A stretch of DNA of 52,643 nt from an uncultured Oscillospiraceae bacterium (GTDB lineage: Bacteria; Bacillota; Clostridia; Oscillospirales; Oscillospiraceae), in NCBI GenBank assembly GCA_964515275.1, contig CAZESU010000002.1, positions 1-52,643 on the forward strand, given 5' to 3'. The notes under the pieces were generated by a model that did no database searches, was not told the origin of the DNA, and saw nothing but the letters and a program-made list of their open reading frames with translations. Below are positions 7,755 to 49,734 of the stretch, piece by piece (position 1 is the first letter of the stretch; the number at the start of each line of letters is the position of its first letter). The position numbers and the translations under genes are program-made.

Positions 7755-8016
7755 GGTTCCGCCCTCCTGTCAAGTGATTTACCTTTGCAGAGTATACAAC
7801 CATATGCCGCCGCTGTCAAGTATTTTTTCTTGTCAGCACAGATTATTTTGCATCAAACGGTTTCCGCATATAAATGCAAAGCATGGGAAAAATGTAAATA
7901 CCATCATTGGACAGTGGGAAATATGCCTGACAGCGGCTCACTCAGGCGCTTTGCCGACCGCCGAAAACCGTGTTTCCCCTTGTCCACGGATGGTAAACCT
8001 CAAACAGGAGGAAAGC

Positions 8017-11000
8017 ATGGATAACCACAGTTTGTCATATATAAGCGATGAAAAATTAGCCGCCTTTGCGGCCTCGGAGGCAAGGCTTCTGCGCCCGGAC
8101 GGTACTGGCTCTGCCCGGCACTGCACGGAGCTGATGAAACGGAGCTTTTCCCTGATACAGCGTACCCACGAGGTCATATCCCGCCGCTACGGTGGCCAGC
8201 CCTCCGTGCCTGCCGCCTGTGAATGGCTGCTGGACAACTGGTACATGGTGCAGCGGGAATACCGTTTTGCCCGCTCGGGGCTGGCTTGTGCGCGGTGCCT
8301 CCGGCTCTGCGGTGACCTGCCCCTGATTTTCGAGCTGTGCCGCGCTCTGCTGCATGCCGGACAGGGAGCCGTGGACGAGGAGCGCTGCGCGCTGTTTCTT
8401 CAGGGCTTTCAGACCGTGACGGTGCTGCGGCGAAGTGAGCTGCTGCTGTTCCCTGCCGCCCTGCGCGCCGCCATAACGGAGGGCATTGCCCAGGTATGCA
8501 GCAATATGCAGTACGCCTCCGACACCGGAGAGTACGCAAAGGAGCTGGAGGCTCTTTTCGGCACTCTTCGGCTCTTCTCCGTGCTGGACACAGAAAAGCT
8601 GATCTCCCAGTCGGATGTGACCGAGGCCATTCTCTCCAAAGACCCCACCGGCGACTATCCCAACATGGACAGCGGCACCAAGCAGGACTATCTGGCCCGG
8701 CTTGAGAAGCTGGCCCGGTCTCAGGGGCTGGAGGAGCATGTGCTGGCCCGCCGTTTTATCAAGCAGGCGGAAGAGGATCGGCGGCATGTGGGCTTTTATC
8801 TCTTTGACCGGAGCAAAGGCCGGGGTGCCGGGCTTTACATCGGCGCGAATATCCTCCTCACCCTGTTTCTGAGTCTGCTGCTGTCCTTTGCCGTGGGCAG
8901 TCCCGCAGCGGCACTGCTTTTGCTGCTGCCGGTATCGGAGCTGGTAAAGAGCCTGCTGGATTTTCTTCTGCTCCAGTTTGTTCCGTCAAGACGCCTGCCC
9001 AGAATGGACACGGAAAAGGGCGTGCCCCCGGAGGGCAGAACCATCTGCGTTCTCTCCGCCCTGCTGACCTGCCCGGACAGTGGCACACGCCTTGCCTCCC
9101 GGCTGGAGGAATTTCGCCTTTCCAACCGCAGTGCCGGGAAAAACCTGTGCTTCGGTATTCTGGCGGATCTGCCCGCCGCGGATGCGCCCGAGGTCGAGGG
9201 AGACGAAAGAATCCTCCGCGCTGCCCGCACAGCCATCAATGAGCTGAATATCAAATACGGCGGCGGCTTTTACCTTTTCACCAGAGAGCGCAGCTTTGAC
9301 GGAGAGCGCTACACCGGAAACGAGCGAAAGCGCGGCGCACTGCTGGAGTTGAGCAAGCTGCTGTGCGACAGAGAATCCGCCCTTCAGGTCACCGGAGACA
9401 GGGACGCGCTGGTGGGGGTGCGGTATATCATCACGCTGGACAGCGACACCCGCATGTATCCCGGCGCGGCCTCAGAGCTGATCGGTGCCATGCTCCATCC
9501 CCTGTGCACCCCCAAAGTGGACCCCCAGCGCCATATCGTGACCGAGGGCCATGCCCTGATCCACCCCAGAATGAGCACCGAGCTTCAAAGCGCGACCTAC
9601 ACCGATTTTGCCCTGATTTTCGCCGGTGCCGGGGGCAGCGATCCCTACGGCGCATTGTGTGGCGAGCTGTATATGGACGCCTTCAAAAGCGGCGGCTTTG
9701 CCGGCAAGGGGATTTTGGACGCAAAGGTGCTGCTCCAGTGCAGCGAGGCCCACTTCCCTGCCGGCTGCATCTTGTCCCACGATGCGCTGGAGGGAGCCTA
9801 TCTCCACGGAGCCTTTATGGGCGATACGGAATTTTCCGATAGCTTCCCCTCAAAGCCCCTGTCCTACTACAAGCGCCTCCACCGCTGGGTTCGGGGCGAC
9901 TGGCAGAATGCCCCCTGGATTTTCCGCAGCGGCAAAGACCTGACGGATATCGACCGCTGGCGGCTGCTGGACAGCCTTCGCCGCAGTCTGATCCCGCCTG
10001 CCACTCTTCTTGCCATACTGGCGGGCTTCTTTCTGCCGGTAACGGGGCTCACTCTTGCGGCCTGGGCGGCGCTGCTGGCCCTTTTGAGCAGGCTCTTCCT
10101 CTCCTTTGCAGAGGGCGGGCGCAGGAAACACGAGCGTGTGCCCCTGCGCCGCTACACCAGACTGCTGACCGGCGTGGGCGGCGCCATCGTACAGACCTTT
10201 ATGCGTCTGTGGCTGCTGCCTTTTGAGGCGTGGATCTGTCTCTCTGCCGCCGTTACCGCCCTGTGGCGGATGCTGAAAAGCCGCAAGAAGCTGCTGGAAT
10301 GGGAGACTGCCGCCCAGAGCGACAGCAAGACCGGCGGGCTGACCGCCTATGGAAAGGCCATGTGGTTCCCCATGCTGATCGGCGCGCTGTGCCTGCTGCT
10401 CTCCCCGGTCATCATCGGCAGATCCTCGGGACTCATGTGGCTTTTGTCCCCGGCGGCAGCGGCGGCGCTGGCTTTGCCCGCTCACCGGGAATACGCCCTC
10501 AGCCGGGCGGACAGGGATTACCTGAAAAACCGGGTGCTAAAGACTTGGCGCTATCTGCGGGAGTTCTCGGGGAAAGAGGACAACTACCTGCCCCCGGATA
10601 ATTTTCAGGAGCAGCCGCCCATAGGAGCTGCCCACCGCACTTCGCCCACCAATATTGGCCTTGCGACAGCCTCTGCCGTGGCGGCGATGGACATGGAGCT
10701 GATTCCGGCTCGGGAGGCCGTGGAATATATCGACCGCATGGCGGACACATTGCTGCGCATGCCCCGATGTCTGGGCCACTACTACAACTGGTATGACACC
10801 CGTACCCTCCTGCCCCTGCACCCGGCCTTTGTCTCCACTGTGGACAGCGGCAACCTGTATGCGGGGCTTCTGGTGGCGGCAGATGCCATGGAAGAGCTGG
10901 GGCAGCGGGAGCTTTCCGCAAAGCTTCAAAATATCATGGAGCCCATGGACTTTTCGCCCCTGTACGATGCGGGCAGGGGGCTTTTCTATATCTGCTACGA

Positions 11001-14000
11001 TGCCGCCAAAGAGCGGGGTGCCGGCGGCTGGTACGACCTGATGGCGAGCGAGGCCATGCTGACAAGCTACATCGCCATTGCCAAGGGGGATGTGCCCAAA
11101 AAGCACTGGCGCAGGCTGAGCCGGGCTCAGCTCCAGAAGGACGGCTACCGGGGCCTTGCCAGCTGGACGGGCACCATGTTTGAATACCTGATGCCGGAGC
11201 TGTTTCTGCCCCTGTACCGGGGCAGTCTTCTGTACGAGAGCAGCCGTTTCTGCCTTTACGCCCAGAAGCGCCGGGTTTTTGCGGGCAAGCCCTGGGGCAT
11301 TTCGGAGAGCGCCTTTTTCTCTCTGGACAACAGCCTCAACTACCGCTACAAGGCTCACGGCTGCCCCGCCCTGGCTCTGAAACGGGGGCAGGAGGACGAC
11401 ATGGTGGTCTCTCCGTACAGCAGCTTTCTGGCCCTGTGCGTGGAGCCCGAAAGCGCCGTCAGAAATCTGCATCGGCTGGAGCGTTTCGGCGCTCTGGGCC
11501 GCTACGGCTTTATTGAGGCGCTGGACTTTACGCCGGGCCGCTGCCGCAGTGACAGCGGAGAACCGGTGCGCTGCTATATGGCCCACCACGCGGGCATGAG
11601 TATTCTGGCAGCGGCAAACGCGGTAAATGAGGGCTGTGTTCAGCGGCGGTTTATGTCCAACCCTGCCATGTCCGCCCACTGCGCCATGCTGCAGGAGCGG
11701 CTGCCGGAGAACGGCATCGTCATCCGCCGGGACCTGTCCCCTGTGCCGGAAAAGCCGGATCGGGCTGCGCCCTGCCGCTGGCAGAAGCGGGGCGGGCAGG
11801 AGAACAGCGGCAGCTGTGTCCTGTCAAACGGAGCCTACGAGATGCTTCTTGACTCGCAGGCTCAGGGCCGGGCCAAATTCGGAGGCCGCCTTATCTATAT
11901 GGAAGCCCCCGAATTCCGGCTGGACCGGCAGAAGCTCTTCCCCTCAAAGGCAGAGCAGTGGGAGTTTTCCGAGGACAAGTGCAGCTATCGGCAGAGCCTT
12001 GAAGGGCTGGAATGTGAGCTGACGGTGTCCGCCGCCTCAGGAGACTGCGGGGAACTCCGCAGTCTGCAGCTTCGCTCCATGGGCGACAGAAGCCTGCGTC
12101 TGCGCTTTTCCTTTGTGCCGCTGCTGGCGGCTTATAAAGATTATGTAAACCATCCCGCCTTCTGGCGACTGGGCATTTGGGCGGTGGCGGAGGAGAGCTG
12201 CCTGTATCTGCGCCGGGTACGCCGGGGCGGCAGAGGTGAGATGTGGCTTTGTCTTGCCTGCGACAGGCGGGCGGCGTTTTCCGCCGATAAAAGGGGTAGT
12301 CTCGGCTGGCTTTCTCAGCCGGAGGTAACGGCGTCCGTTGCTCTGACCCTTGAGGGCGGAGAGCTGACTGCCGTGCGCTTTGCCCTCTGCGCCGCCTTTA
12401 CCCGAAAGGAGGCCCGAGACGGCGCAGCCAGGATACTGGCCGCCTCGGAGCTGGAGTGTGGCAGCATGGTCAGCGCCTCCGCCACGCTGCTGGGGCTCAG
12501 CGCCGGAGAGATCGGCGCCGCCATGGACATGCTGCCCTACCTGCAAAGGCCTCAGCTTTATCAGGCGGAGCCTGCAAGGGATTTGTGGCAGTACGGCATC
12601 TCCGGCGACCTGCCCATTATCTGCTGTGAAAGCGGGGCAAAGGAGGCGGAGAGCCTGCTCATGCGCTTCTGCCTGCTGAAAAGCTGCGGCGTGTCCGCAG
12701 ATCTTGTGTATCTCAGCGACGAGCAGGGCGAATATCAGCGGCCCTTTTTCCGCCGCATCAGCCAGATGCTGACCCGCTATTCCCTTGAGGCGCTGATCGA
12801 CAGCCTCGGCGGCGTACACTTCGTGCCGCTGAACGCAAAAGACCTGATTCTCAGCCGCTCCGCTTACGCCGTAGGCCACGAGCGCGAGACATGCCCGGAG
12901 GCTCCCGCGCCGGTATTCGGCGGTCCCAGAGAGCAGGGCGCCGTCCCCGAATACCAGCATACAGGCAGAGCTTTTGAATATGATGTAGACCAAAATCTCC
13001 CTGCAAAGCCCTGGCAGCTTATCCTGACCAACGGACGCTTCGGCTATATTGCCGCAGACTGCGGCAGCGGCAGCATGTGGTTTGAAAACGCACGGGAGAT
13101 GCGCATCAACGCCCCTGCCCCGCTGCCGGAGGAGATTGCCGGCAGCGAGGCGCTGTGGCTTGAGACGGAGTGGGGCCGCATCAGCCTCTTTGCCGCAAAC
13201 GACGGTCATCCCTGCACCGTCAGCTTCTCGCCTGGCCTTGCGGTCTGGGAAAAGGAAGTGGTCGGCAGGCGCATCAAGACCAGCGCCTTTATTCCCAGCG
13301 GCATGGATGCCAGAGTGTTGATTATCGAGGGCGCCGATGACATGAATCTTTACTGGTCGCTCCGACTGGTGCTGGGAGCGGCAGACGGCAGCGCGGTGCT
13401 GTGCCGCAGTGAAAATGAACTGTTTCGGGCAGAGAACCCGGAGAGCTATCTGCCCGGCACGGTATTCCGCGCCGGCTGCTCCTCCTCCGCGCTGATCCGA
13501 TGCGACTATGCTCCCGCCGCCATGTTCATGCGCTGCACCTGCCAGCACATTACGGTACTGGTCTGCGGCTGCTGCGATGAGGCGGAGATGAAGGAGCTTT
13601 GCCGCCCCAGCCTTGCCCTTGCGGCGCTGGGCGCTGCCACCTCCCGTTGGGCAGCCTTGCTGGACAGGCTGGAGGTGCACACAGACCAGCGGGCCCTGGA
13701 CGCCTATATGAACGGCTGGGCGGCTTATCAGACCATCGCCTGCCGTCTGGAGGGCCGGTGCAGCCTGTACCAGAGCGGCGGCGCACTGGGCTTCCGGGAT
13801 CAGCTGCAGGACGCGCTGAACGTGCTGCTGCTGACGCCGGATTACGCCCGGGTGCAGATTCTCGCCTGCTGCCGCCACCAGTATGTAGAGGGGGATGTGA
13901 TGCACTGGTGGCATCCTCACCCGAACGGCGACAAGGGCGTGCGTACCCGCTGCTCCGACGATCTGCTTTGGCTCACCTGGGCGCTGTGCCGCTATGTGGA

Positions 14001-15054
14001 GGCCACCGGAGACGAAGACATCTGCTTCCGGGAAGAAAATTATGTAAACTCACCTGTCCTGTCCGCCGTGGAGCGTGACCGCTACGAGTGCCCGGAGAGA
14101 TCCGATATGAGCGCCTCGGTGCTGGACCACGCCAAGGCCTCACTGGAGCGATGCATTGCCAGAGGCTTCGGCAGTCACGGTCTGCCATACTTCGGCAGCG
14201 GCGACTGGAACGACGGTCTGGACGAGGTGGAGGGCGAGAGTGTGTGGCTGGGCTGGTTTTTCTCCTGTTGTGCAGCCATGTTTGCCGGGCTGCTTGAGCG
14301 CCTGGGCCGCCCCGGTGCGGAGCGCTACCGGACCTTTTCTCAGCAGGCGGCAGCCGCGGCGGAGGCCAGCTTCAACGGGCGCTGGTATCAGCGGGGAATG
14401 GCGGAAAGCGGCGAGCCCTTGGGCGGCGGGGAACGGATCGACTCCATTGCCCAGAGCTGGGCCGCCCTGTGCGAAAGCAGTGAAAACGAGCATGTGGATA
14501 CCGCCCTTGAAAATGTATTATGTAAACTTGTTGACCGTAAGAACCGACTGGTCAGGCTCTTTGATCCGCCCTTCTCGCCGGATGAACCCTATCAGGGCTA
14601 TATCTCCAGCTACGGGGAGGGCTTCCGGGAAAACGGCGGACAGTACACCCACGGGGCCATCTGGCTGGCCATGGCCTGTTTTCGCCGGGGGCGAAGCGAT
14701 GCGGGCTTTGAGATATTGAACCTGCTGCTGCCGGAGAATCACGATCTGAGCGTATACGGCGGCGAGCCCTTTGTACTCTCGGCGGACGTATACGCCGCCC
14801 CGGGACATGAGGGAGAGGCGGGCTGGACCTGGTACACCGGCTCCTCCGGCTGGTACTTCCGGGTAGTGGCCGAGGAGATGCTGGGTCTGAGACTCCGGGA
14901 TGGGAAGCTGTATATCAGTCCCAACCTGCCTGCTGCCATTGACGGCTACACCGCCCTTTGGACGGATTTCTCCGAAACGCCTCACCGCATTGAGGTGAAA
15001 GGGGAAGAAATCACCGTGGACGGGGAGAAATATTTCGGTCAGGGTCTTGGTTAA
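8017..15054 (+). CDS. Cyclic beta-1,2-glucan synthase-like multidomain protein (GT84-like glycosyltransferase, TM segments, glucoamylase-like barrel, C-terminal GH94 phosphorylase-like domain)
   Basis: 2345 aa from the ATG at 8017 (AGGAGGAAAGC RBS; the track start 7774 runs through the promoter region). GT motifs IITLDSDTRMYPG, ILSHDALEGAYL and RWVRGDWQN. Hydrophobic blocks before and after the GT domain. Central TSPTNIGL, YNWYDTRTL, VSTVDSGNL and FEYLMPELFLP. C-terminal GH94-like FRDQLQDALN, HWWHP...GVRTRCSDDLLWL and GSGDWNDGL. Confidence 0.85.
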   Translation: MDNHSLSYISDEKLAAFAASEARLLRPDGTGSARHCTELMKRSFSLIQRTHEVISRRYGGQPSVPAACEWLLDNWYMVQREYRFARSGLACARCLRLCGDLPLIFELCRALLHAGQGAVDEERCALFLQGFQTVTVLRRSELLLFPAALRAAITEGIAQVCSNMQYASDTGEYAKELEALFGTLRLFSVLDTEKLISQSDVTEAILSKDPTGDYPNMDSGTKQDYLARLEKLARSQGLEEHVLARRFIKQAEEDRRHVGFYLFDRSKGRGAGLYIGANILLTLFLSLLLSFAVGSPAAALLLLLPVSELVKSLLDFLLLQFVPSRRLPRMDTEKGVPPEGRTICVLSALLTCPDSGTRLASRLEEFRLSNRSAGKNLCFGILADLPAADAPEVEGDERILRAARTAINELNIKYGGGFYLFTRERSFDGERYTGNERKRGALLELSKLLCDRESALQVTGDRDALVGVRYIITLDSDTRMYPGAASELIGAMLHPLCTPKVDPQRHIVTEGHALIHPRMSTELQSATYTDFALIFAGAGGSDPYGALCGELYMDAFKSGGFAGKGILDAKVLLQCSEAHFPAGCILSHDALEGAYLHGAFMGDTEFSDSFPSKPLSYYKRLHRWVRGDWQNAPWIFRSGKDLTDIDRWRLLDSLRRSLIPPATLLAILAGFFLPVTGLTLAAWAALLALLSRLFLSFAEGGRRKHERVPLRRYTRLLTGVGGAIVQTFMRLWLLPFEAWICLSAAVTALWRMLKSRKKLLEWETAAQSDSKTGGLTAYGKAMWFPMLIGALCLLLSPVIIGRSSGLMWLLSPAAAAALALPAHREYALSRADRDYLKNRVLKTWRYLREFSGKEDNYLPPDNFQEQPPIGAAHRTSPTNIGLATASAVAAMDMELIPAREAVEYIDRMADTLLRMPRCLGHYYNWYDTRTLLPLHPAFVSTVDSGNLYAGLLVAADAMEELGQRELSAKLQNIMEPMDFSPLYDAGRGLFYICYDAAKERGAGGWYDLMASEAMLTSYIAIAKGDVPKKHWRRLSRAQLQKDGYRGLASWTGTMFEYLMPELFLPLYRGSLLYESSRFCLYAQKRRVFAGKPWGISESAFFSLDNSLNYRYKAHGCPALALKRGQEDDMVVSPYSSFLALCVEPESAVRNLHRLERFGALGRYGFIEALDFTPGRCRSDSGEPVRCYMAHHAGMSILAAANAVNEGCVQRRFMSNPAMSAHCAMLQERLPENGIVIRRDLSPVPEKPDRAAPCRWQKRGGQENSGSCVLSNGAYEMLLDSQAQGRAKFGGRLIYMEAPEFRLDRQKLFPSKAEQWEFSEDKCSYRQSLEGLECELTVSAASGDCGELRSLQLRSMGDRSLRLRFSFVPLLAAYKDYVNHPAFWRLGIWAVAEESCLYLRRVRRGGRGEMWLCLACDRRAAFSADKRGSLGWLSQPEVTASVALTLEGGELTAVRFALCAAFTRKEARDGAARILAASELECGSMVSASATLLGLSAGEIGAAMDMLPYLQRPQLYQAEPARDLWQYGISGDLPIICCESGAKEAESLLMRFCLLKSCGVSADLVYLSDEQGEYQRPFFRRISQMLTRYSLEALIDSLGGVHFVPLNAKDLILSRSAYAVGHERETCPEAPAPVFGGPREQGAVPEYQHTGRAFEYDVDQNLPAKPWQLILTNGRFGYIAADCGSGSMWFENAREMRINAPAPLPEEIAGSEALWLETEWGRISLFAANDGHPCTVSFSPGLAVWEKEVVGRRIKTSAFIPSGMDARVLIIEGADDMNLYWSLRLVLGAADGSAVLCRSENELFRAENPESYLPGTVFRAGCSSSALIRCDYAPAAMFMRCTCQHITVLVCGCCDEAEMKELCRPSLALAALGAATSRWAALLDRLEVHTDQRALDAYMNGWAAYQTIACRLEGRCSLYQSGGALGFRDQLQDALNVLLLTPDYARVQILACCRHQYVEGDVMHWWHPHPNGDKGVRTRCSDDLLWLTWALCRYVEATGDEDICFREENYVNSPVLSAVERDRYECPERSDMSASVLDHAKASLERCIARGFGSHGLPYFGSGDWNDGLDEVEGESVWLGWFFSCCAAMFAGLLERLGRPGAERYRTFSQQAAAAAEASFNGRWYQRGMAESGEPLGGGERIDSIAQSWAALCESSENEHVDTALENVLCKLVDRKNRLVRLFDPPFSPDEPYQGYISSYGEGFRENGGQYTHGAIWLAMACFRRGRSDAGFEILNLLLPENHDLSVYGGEPFVLSADVYAAPGHEGEAGWTWYTGSSGWYFRVVAEEMLGLRLRDGKLYISPNLPAAIDGYTALWTDFSETPHRIEVKGEEITVDGEKYFGQGLG

Positions 15055-22858: not shown

Positions 22859-23501
22859 CTATCCCGCCACCGGCGGGCGGCCGGCGGCGGCGAATACCTC
22901 ATCTACGTTGAAAAACAACTCGTTCAAGATGTCCCTGTAATAGGTCATGGAGTAGCCGCCGATCTCCATGCGGGACAAGAGGGCATAGTCCGGGTTGATC
23001 TCGTTATACACCCTTCTGTCCACAGTGCAGTAGATCTCATACTAAAACTTATTAAAATGGTTAAAAACCGTTTTATAGTGCGAAGCGCGTTAAGTTTTTA
23101 TGAGACGTAAATTGTGCCTACGGCACAATTTGAGCGTGCACAGCACGTGGGATTTTTGATTAAACTTTTTAATCAAAAATCAGTATCAAAGCCCGCGTCG
23201 GGAATACACTGCAGGGTGGGCTGCTGCACCCGGTAGCCAAGGGGAGCAATGAAGAGTCTGATCTTCCCGATACAGGGCTTCACATGATCCACCCATTTAT
23301 TGATGTCATAGCTGATCTTCTCTACCGTACAGCCGGAATTATAACCGCCCATGGGGGTAAGCTTATCCGTGAAGATCCGCTCCGGCTAGACAATCAGGCT
23401 GTGGAAAAAGATGTGGCGCACATCCCCCGTATAGCCCAAGGCTGTCCATCTCCGCATGGATGGTGGCACACGCCGCCATGCGCAAGACGCAGCTTTTTCA
23501 T
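22859..23501 (-). pseudogene. Disrupted ORF (possibly polysaccharide-deacetylase-like): in-frame TAG plus a MITE insertion
   Basis: Reverse frame reads ...GYTGDVRHIFFHSLIV*PERIFTDKLTPMGGYNSGCTVEKISYDINKWVDHVKPCIGKIRLFIAPLGYRVQQPTLQCIPDAGF [146-bp repeat] EIYCTVDRRVYNEINPDYALLSRMEIGGYSMTYYRDILNELFFNVDEVFAAAGRPPVAG*. The function call rests only on the HIFFHSLIV.PE..F motif. Confidence 0.6.
23040..23185 (+). mobile_element. MITE-like repeat, copy A (146 bp), flanked by TCA/TCA
   Basis: TACTAAAACTTATTAAAATGGTTAAAAACCGTTTTATAGTGCGAAGCGCGTTAAG...GATTTTTGATTAAACTTTTTAATCAAAAATCAGTA. Flanking TCA at 23037-23039 and 23186-23188. AT-rich against GC-rich surroundings. Confidence 0.85.
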
Positions 23502-34261: not shown

Positions 34262-34906
34262 ATGACACGGGGCGGAGGCCGAAACCGGGATCAGGTGGAA
34301 TTCACAAGTTTGGATGAATTGGTGCCGGAAGATCATTTGGTGAGGAAACTGGAGAACGCCATAGATTGGAGCTTTCTCTATGAAATGGTGGAGGAGAGCT
34401 ATTGCGAAGATAACGGACGCCCGAGCCTCGACCCGGTGATCCTGATCAAATTGCCGGTGGTGCAGTATATGTTTGGGATTCGAAGCATACGGCAGACGAT
34501 TCAGGAAATTAAGGTGAACAATGCATAGCGATGGTTTCTGGGCATAGGGCTGCGTGATCCCGTGCCGCATTTCAGCACCTTTGGGAAGAATTACAGCAGG
34601 AGATTCAAGGATACAGATTTGTTTGAACGAATCTTTCAGAAGATATTAAGCGAGTGCATGAAGGCAGGCCTGGTGGATGGATCCGTAGTATTTGTGGATT
34701 CGACTCACGTAAAGGCACGAGCCAACAGCAGGAAGTATACAGACGAACTGGCCGAGGAACAGAGCCTGTGGTATGAGAAAGAACTACGGGCAGAGATCGA
34801 CCGGGATCGGGAAGCGCAAGGGAAGAAGCCGCTGAAGGATAAGGAAAGCTCCGTTAGGCAATTCCTTTTTCATAAAACCAAACGGTTTTATAAAAAACAG
34901 TATTAA
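34262..34906 (+). pseudogene. IS1182-family transposase, N-terminal ~195 codons only, with an in-frame TAG
   Basis: LVPEDHLVRKLENAIDWSFLYEMVEESYCEDNGRPSLDPVILIKLPVVQYMFGIRSIRQTIQEIKVNNA*RWFLGIGLRDPVPHFSTFGKNYSRRF...VFVDSTHVKARAN matches the conserved DUF772/IS1182 N-terminus. The TAG at 34526-34528 replaces the conserved Tyr of AYRWFLG. The catalytic DDE half is missing. Confidence 0.85.
34841..34902 (+). repeat. Partial repeat (module M of the MITE family), copy F
   Basis: AAGGAAAGCTCCGTTAGGCAATTCCTTTTTCATAAAACCAAACGGTTTTATAAAAAACAGTA followed by TTA. Near-identical to 46116-46176 and 43340-43389. Confidence 0.75.
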
Positions 34907-39247: not shown

Positions 39248-39393
39248 TACTAAAACTTATGAAAACGGTTAAAAACCGTTTTATAGCGCGAAGCGCGTTA
39301 AGTTTTTATGAGACGTAAATTGTGCCTACGGCACAATTTGAGCGTGCACAGCACGCGGGATTCCTGATTAAACTTTTTAATCAGGAATCAGTA
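39248..39393 (+). mobile_element. MITE-like repeat, copy B (146 bp), flanked by TTA/TTA
   Basis: TACTAAAACTTATGAAAACGGTTAAAAACCGTTTTATAGCGCGAAGCGCGTTAAGTTTTTATGAGACGTAAATTGTGCCTACGGCACAATTTGAGCGTGCACAGCACGCGGGATTCCTGATTAAACTTTTTAATCAGGAATCAGTA. TTA at 39245-39247 and 39394-39396. Confidence 0.85.
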
Positions 39394-39410
39394 TTAACAG
39401 AGAGAGCAAA

Positions 39411-39745
39411 ATGAAGAACGATTACCTTATTGAAAAACCTCCCCCTGCCGGCTCTGCTGGTATTTTCGCTGCCTATAATCATGGCAACCTGTTCCAGCAG
39501 CTGTATACCACGGCGGATTCCGCTATCATAGGTCGCTATGTGGGTGAGCAGACTCTTGCCGCCGTGGGCGCGTCAAACGCGCTCACCATGGCGTTTATCT
39601 GCGTTGCCATCGGAGGCGGTACCGGCGCATCGTGATGGTGATCCGTCACTTCGGTGCAAAGGAATACGGCAAAATGCGTCTTGCGGCAACCGCCGCAGCA
39701 AGTGGCTCGATATGCTTGCCGGATCAAGCCGCAAAAAACGAATAA
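39411..39745 (+). pseudogene. MATE-family efflux transporter remnant (first ~100 codons, multiply frameshifted, then truncated)
   Basis: GNLFQQLYTTADSAIIGRYVGEQTLAAVGASNALTMAF...GGGTGAS is the MATE N-terminal signature. The preceding TITLLKNLPLPALLVFSLPIIM and following VMVIRHFGAKEYGKMRLA segments lie in other frames. No further MATE sequence before the terminator. Confidence 0.75.
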
Positions 39746-43300: not shown

Positions 43301-43389
43301 TACTGATTCTTGATTAAATTTTTTAATCAGGAATCAGTATTAGGCGGTTCCTTTTCTATAAAACCAAACGTTTTTATGAAAAAACAGTA
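43301..43389 (+). repeat. Composite partial repeat, copy E: 39-bp palindromic mini-element plus module M
   Basis: TACTGATTCTTGATTAAATTTTTTAATCAGGAATCAGTA (43301-43339), then TTAGGCGGTTCCTTTTCTATAAAACCAAACGTTTTTATGAAAAAACAGTA, followed by TGAGAG. Confidence 0.75.
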
Positions 43390-46002: not shown

Positions 46003-46019
46003 TTTTCCTACACTCCTTA

Positions 46020-46260
46020 TACTAAAACTTATTAAAACGGTTGAAAACCTTTTTATAGCACCGCAGGTGCGTTATGAACTGTATGAGACGACTTATGCGG
46101 CAATCTTCCGCAAAAGGGAAGCGCCGTTAGGCGATTCCTTTTTCATAAAACCAAACGGTTTTATGAAAAACAGTATGAGACGTAAATTGTGCCTACGGCA
46201 CAATATGAGCATGCACTGCACGCGGGATTCTTGATTAAACTTATTAATCAAGAATCCGTA
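46020..46260 (+). mobile_element. MITE-like repeat, copy C (241-bp long variant with extra module M), flanked by TTA/TTA
   Basis: Same termini as A, B and D (TACTAAAACTTATTAAAACGG...AATCAAGAATCCGTA). A 95-bp additional segment lies between two copies of GTATGAGACG (46081-46090 and 46173-46182). TTA at 46017-46019 and 46261-46263. Confidence 0.85.
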
Positions 46261-46926
46261 TTAAAGCAGATTTTTCTTATACAGGATACGAGACACCGCC
46301 AGAGTAAACAGCACGCCTACAGGAACCATGATACCCACCGTACCCGAGTTCATGGCGGGGACAAAGATGAACAGGAGCAGCATCAGCGTCACGGGGGCAA
46401 TGGCGATCTTCCAGTTCTTTGAGATGAACACCACACCCAGACCGCCGAACAGGGCGGGCACGATCTGTGCGAAAGCCGGGGCCAGCACCGGGGAGTTCAG
46501 CACGGGAGTCAAGGGGGTTATCAGGATAACGCCCAAAATGATGATAACGGTCGTCACAATGCTGGACATGGCGATGGCGATGGTGGATACGATCTCTCCC
46601 TCCTCGGAGTTGATCTTTACGTCCGCCTGCTCAAGGGCGTTGAGCGCTACCGGCAACTTCAGGTTTGAGACATTGCCGGTTACAAAGGACAGATAGGAGC
46701 CGCCGGCGCCCAGCATCGGCACATAGGTAAAGGTTTCGATCACCGCAACTGCCCAGTACATGGGTGCCGTTGCGATGACGCCCATGAGAAAGCCGTGCCA
46801 GTCAGGCGGTGCCTGATATATGATGCCCACGCTTATGGGGTACATGAAAAGGATCACCATTACGGAGAGATTCCAGATTCGTCCCGCTCTGTGGACGGAA
46901 TCCATATAAGTAAGATTGTTTTTCAT
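46261..46926 (-). CDS. Polytopic membrane protein, function unknown
   Basis: 221 aa, about 6 TM. Its stop codon (TAA, reverse of 46261-46263) coincides with the flank triplet of MITE copy C. Confidence 0.65.
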   Translation of the reverse strand: MKNNLTYMDSVHRAGRIWNLSVMVILFMYPISVGIIYQAPPDWHGFLMGVIATAPMYWAVAVIETFTYVPMLGAGGSYLSFVTGNVSNLKLPVALNALEQADVKINSEEGEIVSTIAIAMSSIVTTVIIILGVILITPLTPVLNSPVLAPAFAQIVPALFGGLGVVFISKNWKIAIAPVTLMLLLFIFVPAMNSGTVGIMVPVGVLFTLAVSRILYKKNLL

Positions 46927-49458: not shown

Positions 49459-49495
49459 AAACCTTCCATCCTTTTTTTCATTGGGCACATTGTAA

Positions 49496-49641
49496 TACTG
49501 ATTCTTGATTAAAAAGTTTCATCAAGAATCCCGCGTGCTGTGCACGCTCAAATTGTGCCGTAGGCACAATTTACGTCTCATAAAAACATCACGCGCTTCG
49601 CGCTATAAAACGGTTTTTAACCGTTTTCATAAGTTTTAGTA
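49496..49641 (-). mobile_element. MITE-like repeat, copy D (146 bp, inverted orientation), flanked by TAA/TAA on the plus strand
   Basis: The reverse complement aligns end to end with copy B. TAA at 49493-49495 and 49642-49644. Confidence 0.85.
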
Positions 49642-49734
49642 TAACACAGCAAAAAGCAAAGCTCAATAAAATTACGTCTATCTTTTATCTCGATAACGTG
49701 TTACAATATGAAATCATTTACCGGAGCGTTTAAT

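Follow-up and report, generated by a model that had tools for sequence, protein, structure and literature searches.

Repeat copies in the window

The stretch analysed here (the window) comprises 52,643 nt of the forward strand of contig CAZESU010000002.1 (GCA_964515275.1) from an uncultured Oscillospiraceae bacterium, and it contains four full copies (A to D) and three fragments of a short, hairpin-rich repeat, the fragments having been added by sensitive blastn and a repeat search. The repeat is a genuine, demonstrably mobile transposable element of the miniature inverted-repeat kind (MITE), as seen from its size, its non-coding and AT-rich sequence, its multiple copies, its terminal inverted repeats, its target-site duplication and an empty site, and the paired changes in its stems are real covariation and not the result of shared ancestry alone. 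The window is otherwise an ordinary chromosomal segment with ksgA, trmD, ffh, peptidases and transporters, and the ten further open reading frames (ORFs) scanned in Pfam were all housekeeping genes, with no transposase among them. The repeats have a GC content of 34-40% compared to 54.6% for the window, are 146-241 nt long and carry stop codons in all six frames. The copies and fragments are listed below, where H5 is the terminal stem of the element and the types are the sequence types described in a later section.

23040-23185 (+): copy A, type-1 element, with TCA flanks at 23037-23039 and 23186-23188
34841-34902 (+): type-2 3' tail fragment, ending CAGTA then TTA, adjoining a truncated transposase pseudogene
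39248-39393 (+): copy B, complete 146-nt type-1 element with ends TAC...GTA, covariance-model score 174.9 bits
39245-39247 (left) and 39394-39396 (right): target-site duplication TTA of copy B
43301-43339 (+): mini-palindrome of 39 nt, H5 arms alone with tips TAC...GTA, TACTGATTCTTGATTAAA TTTT TTAATCAGGAATCAGTA
43340-43389 (+): type-2 3' tail fragment, ending CAGTA, then TGA
46020-46260 (+): copy C, 241-nt chimera, with TTA flanks at 46017-46019 and 46261-46263
49496-49641 (-): copy D, type-1 element, with TTA flanks (in element orientation) at 49642-49644 and 49493-49495

The 19-mer ATTGTGCCTACGGCACAAT of the central hairpin is present in all four copies, at 23111, 39319 and 46186 on the plus strand and at 49552 on the minus strand, where no occurrence is expected by chance. 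Copy C includes an extra 92-nt type-2 module (46087-46178) followed by a type-1 3' half (46179-46260), and its right-hand TTA doubles as the stop codon (TAA) of 46261-46926, a minus-strand gene.

Directly after copy B, the stretch 39411-39635 (+) encodes a 74-aa N-terminal MATE efflux fragment (Pfam MatE, E = 5e-7); this MATE gene is truncated, and a minus-strand gene comes next.

Predicted fold of the element

The element is predicted to fold into six helices, namely a three-way junction, in which the long-range stem P0 surrounds hairpins H1 and H2, followed by hairpins H3, H4 and H5. In copy B the parts of the fold are as follows.

39252-39259 / 39299-39306: P0, AAAACTTA/TAAGTTTT, enclosing H1 and H2
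39262-39270 / 39274-39282: H1, AAAACGGTT-AAA-AACCGTTTT
39286-39289 / 39293-39296: H2, GCGC-GAA-GCGC, with loop GAA
between H2 and H3: unpaired motif TATGAGACG
39317-39326 / 39330-39339: H3, ATTGTGCC-TAC-GGCACAAT, 10-11 bp
39342-39347 / 39351-39356: H4, GCGTGC-ACA-GCACGC
39359-39372 / 39376-39389: H5, the terminal stem of 14 bp, GATTCCTGATTAAA/TTTAATCAGGAATC

The build is modular, with a 5' module (P0, H1 and H2), a conserved GTA-TGA-GACG and a 3' module (H3 to H5), and the loops are mostly 3-4 nt. Compared with shuffled sequences, the folding energy had z values of -9.3 (DNA, plus strand), -7.4 (RNA, plus strand) and -8.4 (RNA, minus strand), and none of 200 shuffles folded as well. H2 to H5 were recovered independently by RNAalifold. 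The minimum-energy DNA fold has the same helix layout save that H2 lies one register off (GCGCG-AAG-CGCGT); the register GCGC-GAA-GCGC was adopted because the other H2 variants support it.

An original prediction, made from the letters of this DNA, had begun the element at 39280, which cuts it, the interval 39280-39393 being its 3' three quarters. It had correctly recognised H2, H3 and H5 but had missed H1, H4 and P0, and it had given the terminal stem 13 bp instead of 14. The hairpin ATTGTGCC-TAC-GGCACAAT is indeed invariant in the four window copies, and copy C carries GCACC-GCA-GGTGC in place of the GAA hairpin, as had been described; copy C itself exists as a fourth copy, but as a chimera rather than a plain one. 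The hairpin GCGC-GAA-GCGC, which had been ascribed to copies A, B and D, is present in B and D, whereas copy A has GTGC-GAA-GCGC with a T:G pair in the stem and still contains the heptamer GCGAAGC.

In copy A, three CpG-to-TpG changes have produced T:G or G:T pairs in H1, H2 and H4. These uncompensated stem changes at 23058, 23079 and 23149 (ACGG to ATGG, GCGC to GTGC and ACGCGG to ACGTGG) suggest that cytosine-methylation-driven deamination may lie behind them. In copy D, the right strand of P0 carries two uncompensated changes.

Relatives and sequence types

The H3 19-mer, searched for in 185,579 species genomes, located the element in one metagenome-assembled genome (MAG), that of the uncultured Oscillospiraceae bacterium SRP222994_co1_165, on five contigs. 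In a JGI metagenome scan with the palindromic H3 core, two true copies were found, both in a gut assembly of Hoffmann's two-toed sloth, and the other 18 loci were rejected as unrelated repeats. Scans of viral contigs gave one useful locus, a cluster of copies on an IMG/VR contig (L041; L numbers denote loci from these searches), and the remaining viral-contig matches were put down to chance. No match to copy B was obtained by blastn among PLSDB plasmids and INPHARED phages. Logan contigs of run SRR10165008 were 99.98-100% identical to the window and terminate inside the repeats, which places the organism of the window in that sample; since contigs of the same organism end there, the element breaks short-read assemblies. 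Exact-protein look-ups for the genes flanking copies A to D returned same-sample contigs only, with no polymorphic site. The flanking peptidase is 80% identical to a protein named Candidatus Limivicinus sp.

At least four sequence types with one common architecture were distinguished.

Type 1: P0 AAAACTTA/TAAGTTTT, H1 AAAACGGTT, H2 GCGC-GAA-GCGC
Type 2 (L008 1533-1689): P0 CAGTTCTTA/TAAGAACTG, H1 AAAAAGGTT, H2 GCACC-GCA-GGTGC
Type 3 (L004 5914-6070; partial, L003 1-107): P0 CAATCCCTG/CAGGGATTG, H1 AAAAAGCA, H2 GCCCCC-GCA-GGGGGC
Type 4 (L041 2988-3136): P0 CAAAACCTG/CAGGTTTTG, H1 AAAAAGCTT, H2 GCACC-GAA-GGTGC

Type 2 differs in its 3' module (H3B, H4B and H5B), in type 3 each of the three 3' helices has a version of its own, and type 4 combines a wholly different H3 (CACAGCGTGT/ACACGCTGTG) and a shifted H4 with the type-1 H5. 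The unpaired motifs TTTTATAG and GTATGAGACG and the terminal CAGTA are constant across types, and a covariance model built from types 1 and 4 alone detected types 2 and 3 over their full length with 68-72 bits.

Some copies are composites of these types. Copy C consists, in order, of a 5' module with a type-1 tip and a type-2 body, a type-2 3' module, TGA and a type-1 3' module, and its P0 is broken because the type-1 tip is joined to the type-2 body. The same chimeric 5' module is found in L007, from the MAG. Copy C and L041 have two 3' modules each, and modules are always joined as ...GTA-TGA-GACG.... The composites would fit an origin in which one element inserted at the internal TGA of another and direct modules then recombined.

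One MAG copy (L005, about 60-85 on the minus strand of the locus) has an insertion of about 23 nt, CTATGCGCAGCATGCCTTTGGCA, in the H1 loop, with the H1 stem kept. Matches to the 19-mer in four Pseudanabaena-group cyanobacteria (L001, L002, L006 and L009) were rejected as a different repeat, since the surrounding sequence is unrelated; there, ATTGTGCCTACGGCACAAT lies inside the longer palindrome TTTTCATTGTGCCTACGGCACAATGAAAA, and the shared 19-nt hairpin is best read as convergence or chance. Five metagenome contigs (L010, L014, L021, L022 and L025) carry a separate, unrelated repeat family, GTAGAAATTGTGCC-NNN-GGCACAATTTCTAC, which recurs within them, with copies about 255 nt apart in L010.

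Covariation of the stems

Covariation was counted on a MAFFT alignment of 11 type-1 and type-4 copies, with a specified structure of 51 pairs. Changes on both sides were found in 13 of the 51 pairs, compared to 2.4±1.2 in 500 shuffles, none of which reached 13, and all six helices contributed to them. In this alignment 94.6% of cells were paired, and when the partners were slid by ±1-3 columns, 0-2 both-sided pairs remained. Including types 2 and 3 (14 copies) raised the both-sided changes to 28 of 51 pairs, where shuffling gave 8.1±2.3 and the slid controls gave 5-8; 95.1% of cells were paired. The covariance-model alignment behind this count was fitted to the structure and hence leans towards it. 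The MAFFT alignment of the 5' module across subfamilies was structurally inconsistent for H2 and was left out of the counts.

In a hand-segmented table of 781 stem pairs, 728 were Watson-Crick, 10 were G:T and 43 were mismatches. About 20 independent compensated pair changes separate the subfamily consensuses, distributed over P0 (about 8), H1 (3), H2 (2), H5 (2), H4B (1) and H5B (6). Two of them are the H5 states, which are as originally claimed, with TT:AA in copy A, CC:GG in copy B and CT:AG in copies C and D, copy D also having one G/A mismatch; CC:GG recurs in copy iv of L041. The mini-palindrome 43301-43339 has T:G where copy B has C:G and looks like a one-sided intermediate of the H5 change.

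The covariation is regarded as real because every one of the six helices shows it, as do comparisons of subfamilies with nearly no stem sequence in common. The claim of the original prediction that the paired changes go beyond shared ancestry is thus upheld, both counts lying far above the shuffled and slid controls, and statistically supported covariation was present across about 20 instances from a few subfamilies.

Ends, target sites and the empty site

The complete copies all start with TAC and end with GTA, and the same three bases stand on either side in 11 of 11 cases, as listed here.

TTA/TTA: copies B, C and D, L003a, L004 outer, L004 inner, L007 and L029
TCA/TCA: copy A and the outer element of L041
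TGA/TGA: the inner element of L041

The target site is therefore TNA, mostly TTA, of which 3 bp are duplicated. An exact empty site for copy C was found in five related pig-gut contigs, whose peptidase is 89-90% identical. In the empty site, the upstream 221-aa gene ends ...TTTTG TAA GGAGCAAGAATT ATG, and the window has ...CTT TAA, copy C and TAA GGAGTG...ATG. From this comparison, copy C entered at the stop codon, and the bases that it duplicated are TAA, or TTA when read along the element.

The element also inserts into members of its own family, as two nested insertions demonstrate. In L004, a type-1 copy has a type-3 member inserted at the TAA within its H5 loop, and the insert carries a separate TTA duplication. 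In L041, a type-4 element flanked by TGA/TGA lies at the internal GTA|TGA|GACG of a short-form element flanked by TCA/TCA.

Read in element orientation, over the window copies A to D and loci L003, L004, L007, L029 and L041, the duplication was TTA nine times, TCA twice and TGA two to three times, and never TAA. Since TTA but never TAA was duplicated, target use is oriented relative to an asymmetric target. Four copies lie exactly on a TAA stop codon and are antisense to that gene, and the oriented use of the target accounts for this orientation.

The terminal inverted repeats are about 20 bp long and imperfect, with about 13-15 of 21 positions matching in each subfamily. Both ends of a subfamily carry the same subfamily-specific core (type 1, CTT.ATTAAAA; type 2, TTCTT; type 3, TCCCTG). 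The 5' terminal repeat forms the left arm of P0, and the 3' terminal repeat forms the right arm of H5. P0 and H5, each viewed as two inverted copies of the terminal repeat, could hence covary as transposase-binding sites, with all copies having to match the transposase specificity of their subfamily, and not through base pairing. The shared cores would fit such a reading. The internal end of the 5' module, which also finishes ...GTA, would agree with this. We consider this explanation very unlikely, as H1 to H4 are not end-like and yet covary, and the type-1 H5 states change without a matching change in the 5' terminal repeat.

Readings of the element as IS200/IS605, REP-RAYT or attC-like were rejected, the duplication being a true one by the empty site, the flanks co-varying and the ends being inverted.

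Candidate transposases

The duplications TTA, TCA and TGA fit a TNA target with a 3-bp repeat, which is the target trait of the IS1031 subgroup of the IS5 family, where the 3-bp repeat is exclusive (PMC12016507). PIF/Harbinger elements use a TWA target with a 3-bp duplication (PMC4482050). Near one of the fragments, the window holds the following transposase remnant.

34262-34840 (+), with remnant sequence upstream, from about 34190: transposase gene of the IS1182/IS5 type, decayed, with a DUF772 domain

This pseudogene contains an in-frame TAG at 34526-34528, is without its DDE half and is cut off where the type-2 tail starts (34841), and its closest proteins are fragments of 84-88% identity from gut metagenomes. 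Although the type-2 tail adjoins it, the pseudogene was rejected as the parent insertion sequence, since its intact relatives in L031 and L032 end CCTGTAGACAAAG...CTTTGTCTACAG and not TAC...GTA. These relatives have a split transposase, a DUF772 ORF followed by a DDE_Tnp_1/DDE_Tnp_1_6 ORF. In L031 (190-330, 2110-2160) and L032 (290-340, 2215-2250) that insertion sequence lies between GC-rich hairpin-like flanks, as if it inserted into palindromes or terminators. Elsewhere in the window, 7774-15054 (+) is a single ORF of 2426 aa.

DNA or RNA as the level of the structure

Several features of the stems and loops bear on whether the structure is used as DNA or as RNA. As had been proposed, C:G-closed GNA triloops (N, any nucleotide) are kept in every H2 variant, the loop being C-GNA-G in 13 of 13 instances over four stem variants. 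The heptamer GCGNAGC forms an extraordinarily stable DNA mini-hairpin for every N, with a melting temperature of 70-76 °C (PMC13037366), and its stability depends on the C:G closing pair (PMC3201870). In the window and in L005 the H3 loop reads TAC, and five other copies with the same stems have its reverse complement, GTA, a hairpin flip of a kind that happens in DNA. Midway along H4B, a helix of types 2 and 3, a purine-purine mismatch has been retained, as G.A in the type-2 part of copy C and in type 3 and as A.G in L008b.

Among the non-Watson-Crick stem pairs, 10 of 53 were G:T and the rest were mismatches, and no wobble pair was found in any subfamily consensus. A structured RNA would be expected to tolerate G:U on one of its strands and to be under purifying selection copy by copy, a signature that was not seen in this small sample. 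In a search of the whole window with Rfam 15 there were no matches at the gathering threshold, and the best sub-threshold match had E = 0.8, with scores of 16-19 bits against cut-offs of at least 50. DNA-level structure used in transposition is favoured over a transcribed structured RNA because G:T pairs are few, both strands fold equally well, loops are mostly 3-4 nt long, the mini-hairpin motif is present and the H3 loop is flipped.

Selection of the hairpins as RNA, with the transcribed fold acting in cis on neighbouring genes as a terminator, untranslated-region stabiliser or processing site, or as a small RNA, is thus rather unlikely. RNA roles have been proposed for bcr1, ERIC, Correia, BOX and SPRITE. 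The copies do lie in untranslated regions, beside ribosome-binding sites or stop codons, and the RNA fold has the low z value given above (-7.4). Weakly in favour are also the TTA|TACT junction, which makes a -10-like TATACT (preceded in copy D by an upstream TG), and the terminator-like scan, which H2 with a T-run on the plus strand and H1 with a T-run on the minus strand pass. Transcribed MITEs with compensatory changes are moreover on record (PMC3184786). The absence of an Rfam match, the lack of G:U enrichment and the equal folding of the strands speak against an RNA role, the orientation of the copies to genes is explained by oriented TTA use, and C:G-closed GNA triloops are special in DNA. 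Resident copies, in addition, gather uncompensated stem changes and lose whole hairpins, as set out in the next section.

Where the constraint acts

In the type-1 copies, 26 of the 876 cells in paired columns deviated from the consensus, as did 44 of the 380 cells in unpaired ones. When private and shared changes were separated by eye from the listing, with small numbers, those private to one copy came to about 21 in 102 paired columns vs about 14 in 45 unpaired columns, a difference that is not significant (chi-square about 1.5), and those common to at least two copies fell in unpaired columns (about 10), the only ones in paired columns being compensated. The private stem changes were all uncompensated save for two H5 pairs, and whole hairpins have been lost, H1 in L013 and L029 and H3 in copy iv of L041. 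With compensated changes in lineages and decay in resident copies, the constraint is therefore placed on the lineages that keep transposing and not on the residents. This pattern argues against a host-selected function at each locus, and the structure most probably aids the spread of the element itself, not the host.

The complementarity might also be kept with no selection on structure, through template switching or gene conversion between the palindrome arms (quasipalindrome correction). The H3 loop inverted between identical stems would then be a footprint of arm exchange, the stems are essentially perfect Watson-Crick palindromes, the clean hairpin deletions in some copies are as expected of unstable DNA palindromes, and the mini-palindrome 43301-43339 resembles a fold-back copy of the H5 end. 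Conversion should, however, erase the conserved H4B mismatch, most private stem changes stay uncompensated, and helix position, order and approximate size are kept while sequences are replaced, with TTTTATAG, GTATGAGACG and CAGTA constant, so that this mechanism is judged unlikely as the source of the paired changes.

With moderate confidence, we therefore prefer the explanation that the fold would be required in DNA for the propagation of the element, with a transposase acting in trans. Only copies with intact stems would keep producing daughters, and inserted copies would decay neutrally. The fold would act as single-strand hairpins or extruded cruciforms at or next to the transposase-binding ends, and the transposase supplied in trans would cut and join. 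The TNA target and 3-bp duplication suggest, by analogy, a mobiliser of the IS1031 type of the IS5 family or of the PIF/Harbinger type.

Several points weigh against this explanation. An autonomous element with the same ends was looked for in the window, among the related loci and, as TAC...GTA ends 30-3000 bp from each other between matching TNA flanks, across all the sequences gathered, and none was found; the only nearby transposase remnant (34262-34840) has different ends. DDE cut-and-paste transposases are not known to need internal hairpins, and the link between fold and transposition is therefore one that we infer. P0 is broken in copy C and in L007, yet one 5' module is common to both genomes, so either spread can do without at least one helix or copy C and L007 arose by recombination. 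The sample comprises about 20 instances, drawn from four sources, the both-sided changes mostly distinguish a few subfamilies, with a modest number of independent events (about 20), and the 14-copy alignment has the leaning noted above.

A bolder and improbable extension of propagation through DNA structure is that the architecture marks nucleic-acid structure as an active partner in the transposition of a DDE-type element that makes duplications. The features concerned would be the three-way junction with three hairpins, the motifs TTTTATAG, GTATGAGACG and CAGTA, the GNA mini-hairpins and the purine-purine mismatch. Either a single-stranded or cruciform DNA intermediate would be recognised by the transposase or the replication machinery, or a structured RNA encoded by the element would work with a recombinase. 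If this were true, self-insertion into hairpin loops and at the GTA|TGA junction would be structure-directed targeting.

Comparison with known systems

The repeat adds a well-delimited, recently mobile MITE family, with ends, duplication, empty site and subfamilies all defined, to the Oscillospiraceae, a dominant and poorly cultured gut group whose mobile repeats are barely described, and it explains breaks in short-read assemblies of the host organism. Its insertions exactly at stop codons and ribosome-binding sites may alter operon expression. The family also offers a natural experiment on why MITEs keep internal hairpins, which would point to a constraint on propagation rather than a host function, and the GNA mini-hairpins, the loop flip and the absent wobble pairs hint at a role of DNA secondary structure in an element that generates duplications.

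Among known systems, bcr1 of the Bacillus cereus group comes nearest, a mobile repeat of about 155 bp with direct-repeat flanks and independent stem-loops that are kept by compensatory changes and destabilised in some copies (PMC3184786). Compensatory upkeep of stems in a mobile MITE was thus already documented, and the original view that the covariation goes beyond what a passive MITE needs is not supported. Like bcr1 and the group A bcr repeats, the element is a non-coding interspersed Firmicute repeat of about 150 nt with a variable genomic distribution. Transcription is documented for bcr1. Unlike bcr1, which has a 5-bp duplication, the element has a 3-bp TNA duplication, and it has six helices with a three-way junction and is modular and self-nesting; a relationship in sequence between the two is not expected.

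BOX of Streptococcus pneumoniae and the BIMEs of enterobacteria are similarly intergenic mosaics with end-complementary terminal modules and variable internal hairpin modules. They have no sequence similarity to the element, and their mobility and duplications are less clear-cut, whereas a TNA duplication and an empty site were observed here.

The IS1031 subgroup and PIF/Harbinger-Tourist elements share with it the TNA or TWA target and the exclusive 3-bp duplication (PMC12016507; PMC4482050). The ends of the element begin with TAC, and the only IS1031-group end that was compared (ISLrh, GAACCTGTCTAGTATCT) differs; no such transposase was found adjoining the repeat or with its ends, and target use is oriented (TTA, never TAA). 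Tourist MITEs are non-autonomous partners of PIF/Harbinger.

With IS200/IS605 and REP/REPIN-RAYT systems, the element has in common short GC-closed hairpins near the ends, as single-stranded DNA, and conservation of structure over sequence. Those systems are without target-site duplication or terminal inverted repeats and insert 3' of a fixed tetra- or pentanucleotide, and REPs have a GTAG-type head, so that the element may work partly like them without being a member. Correia (NEMIS) and ERIC elements are likewise intergenic MITEs with terminal inverted repeats, whose insertion can make promoter- or terminator-like signals and whose transcripts fold stably, but they form one long end-to-end hairpin and not six local helices, their host phyla differ, and the Correia duplication is TA. 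Taken together, the element represents a new hairpin-rich, modular MITE family of a known kind, in which the covariation is real and not unprecedented.

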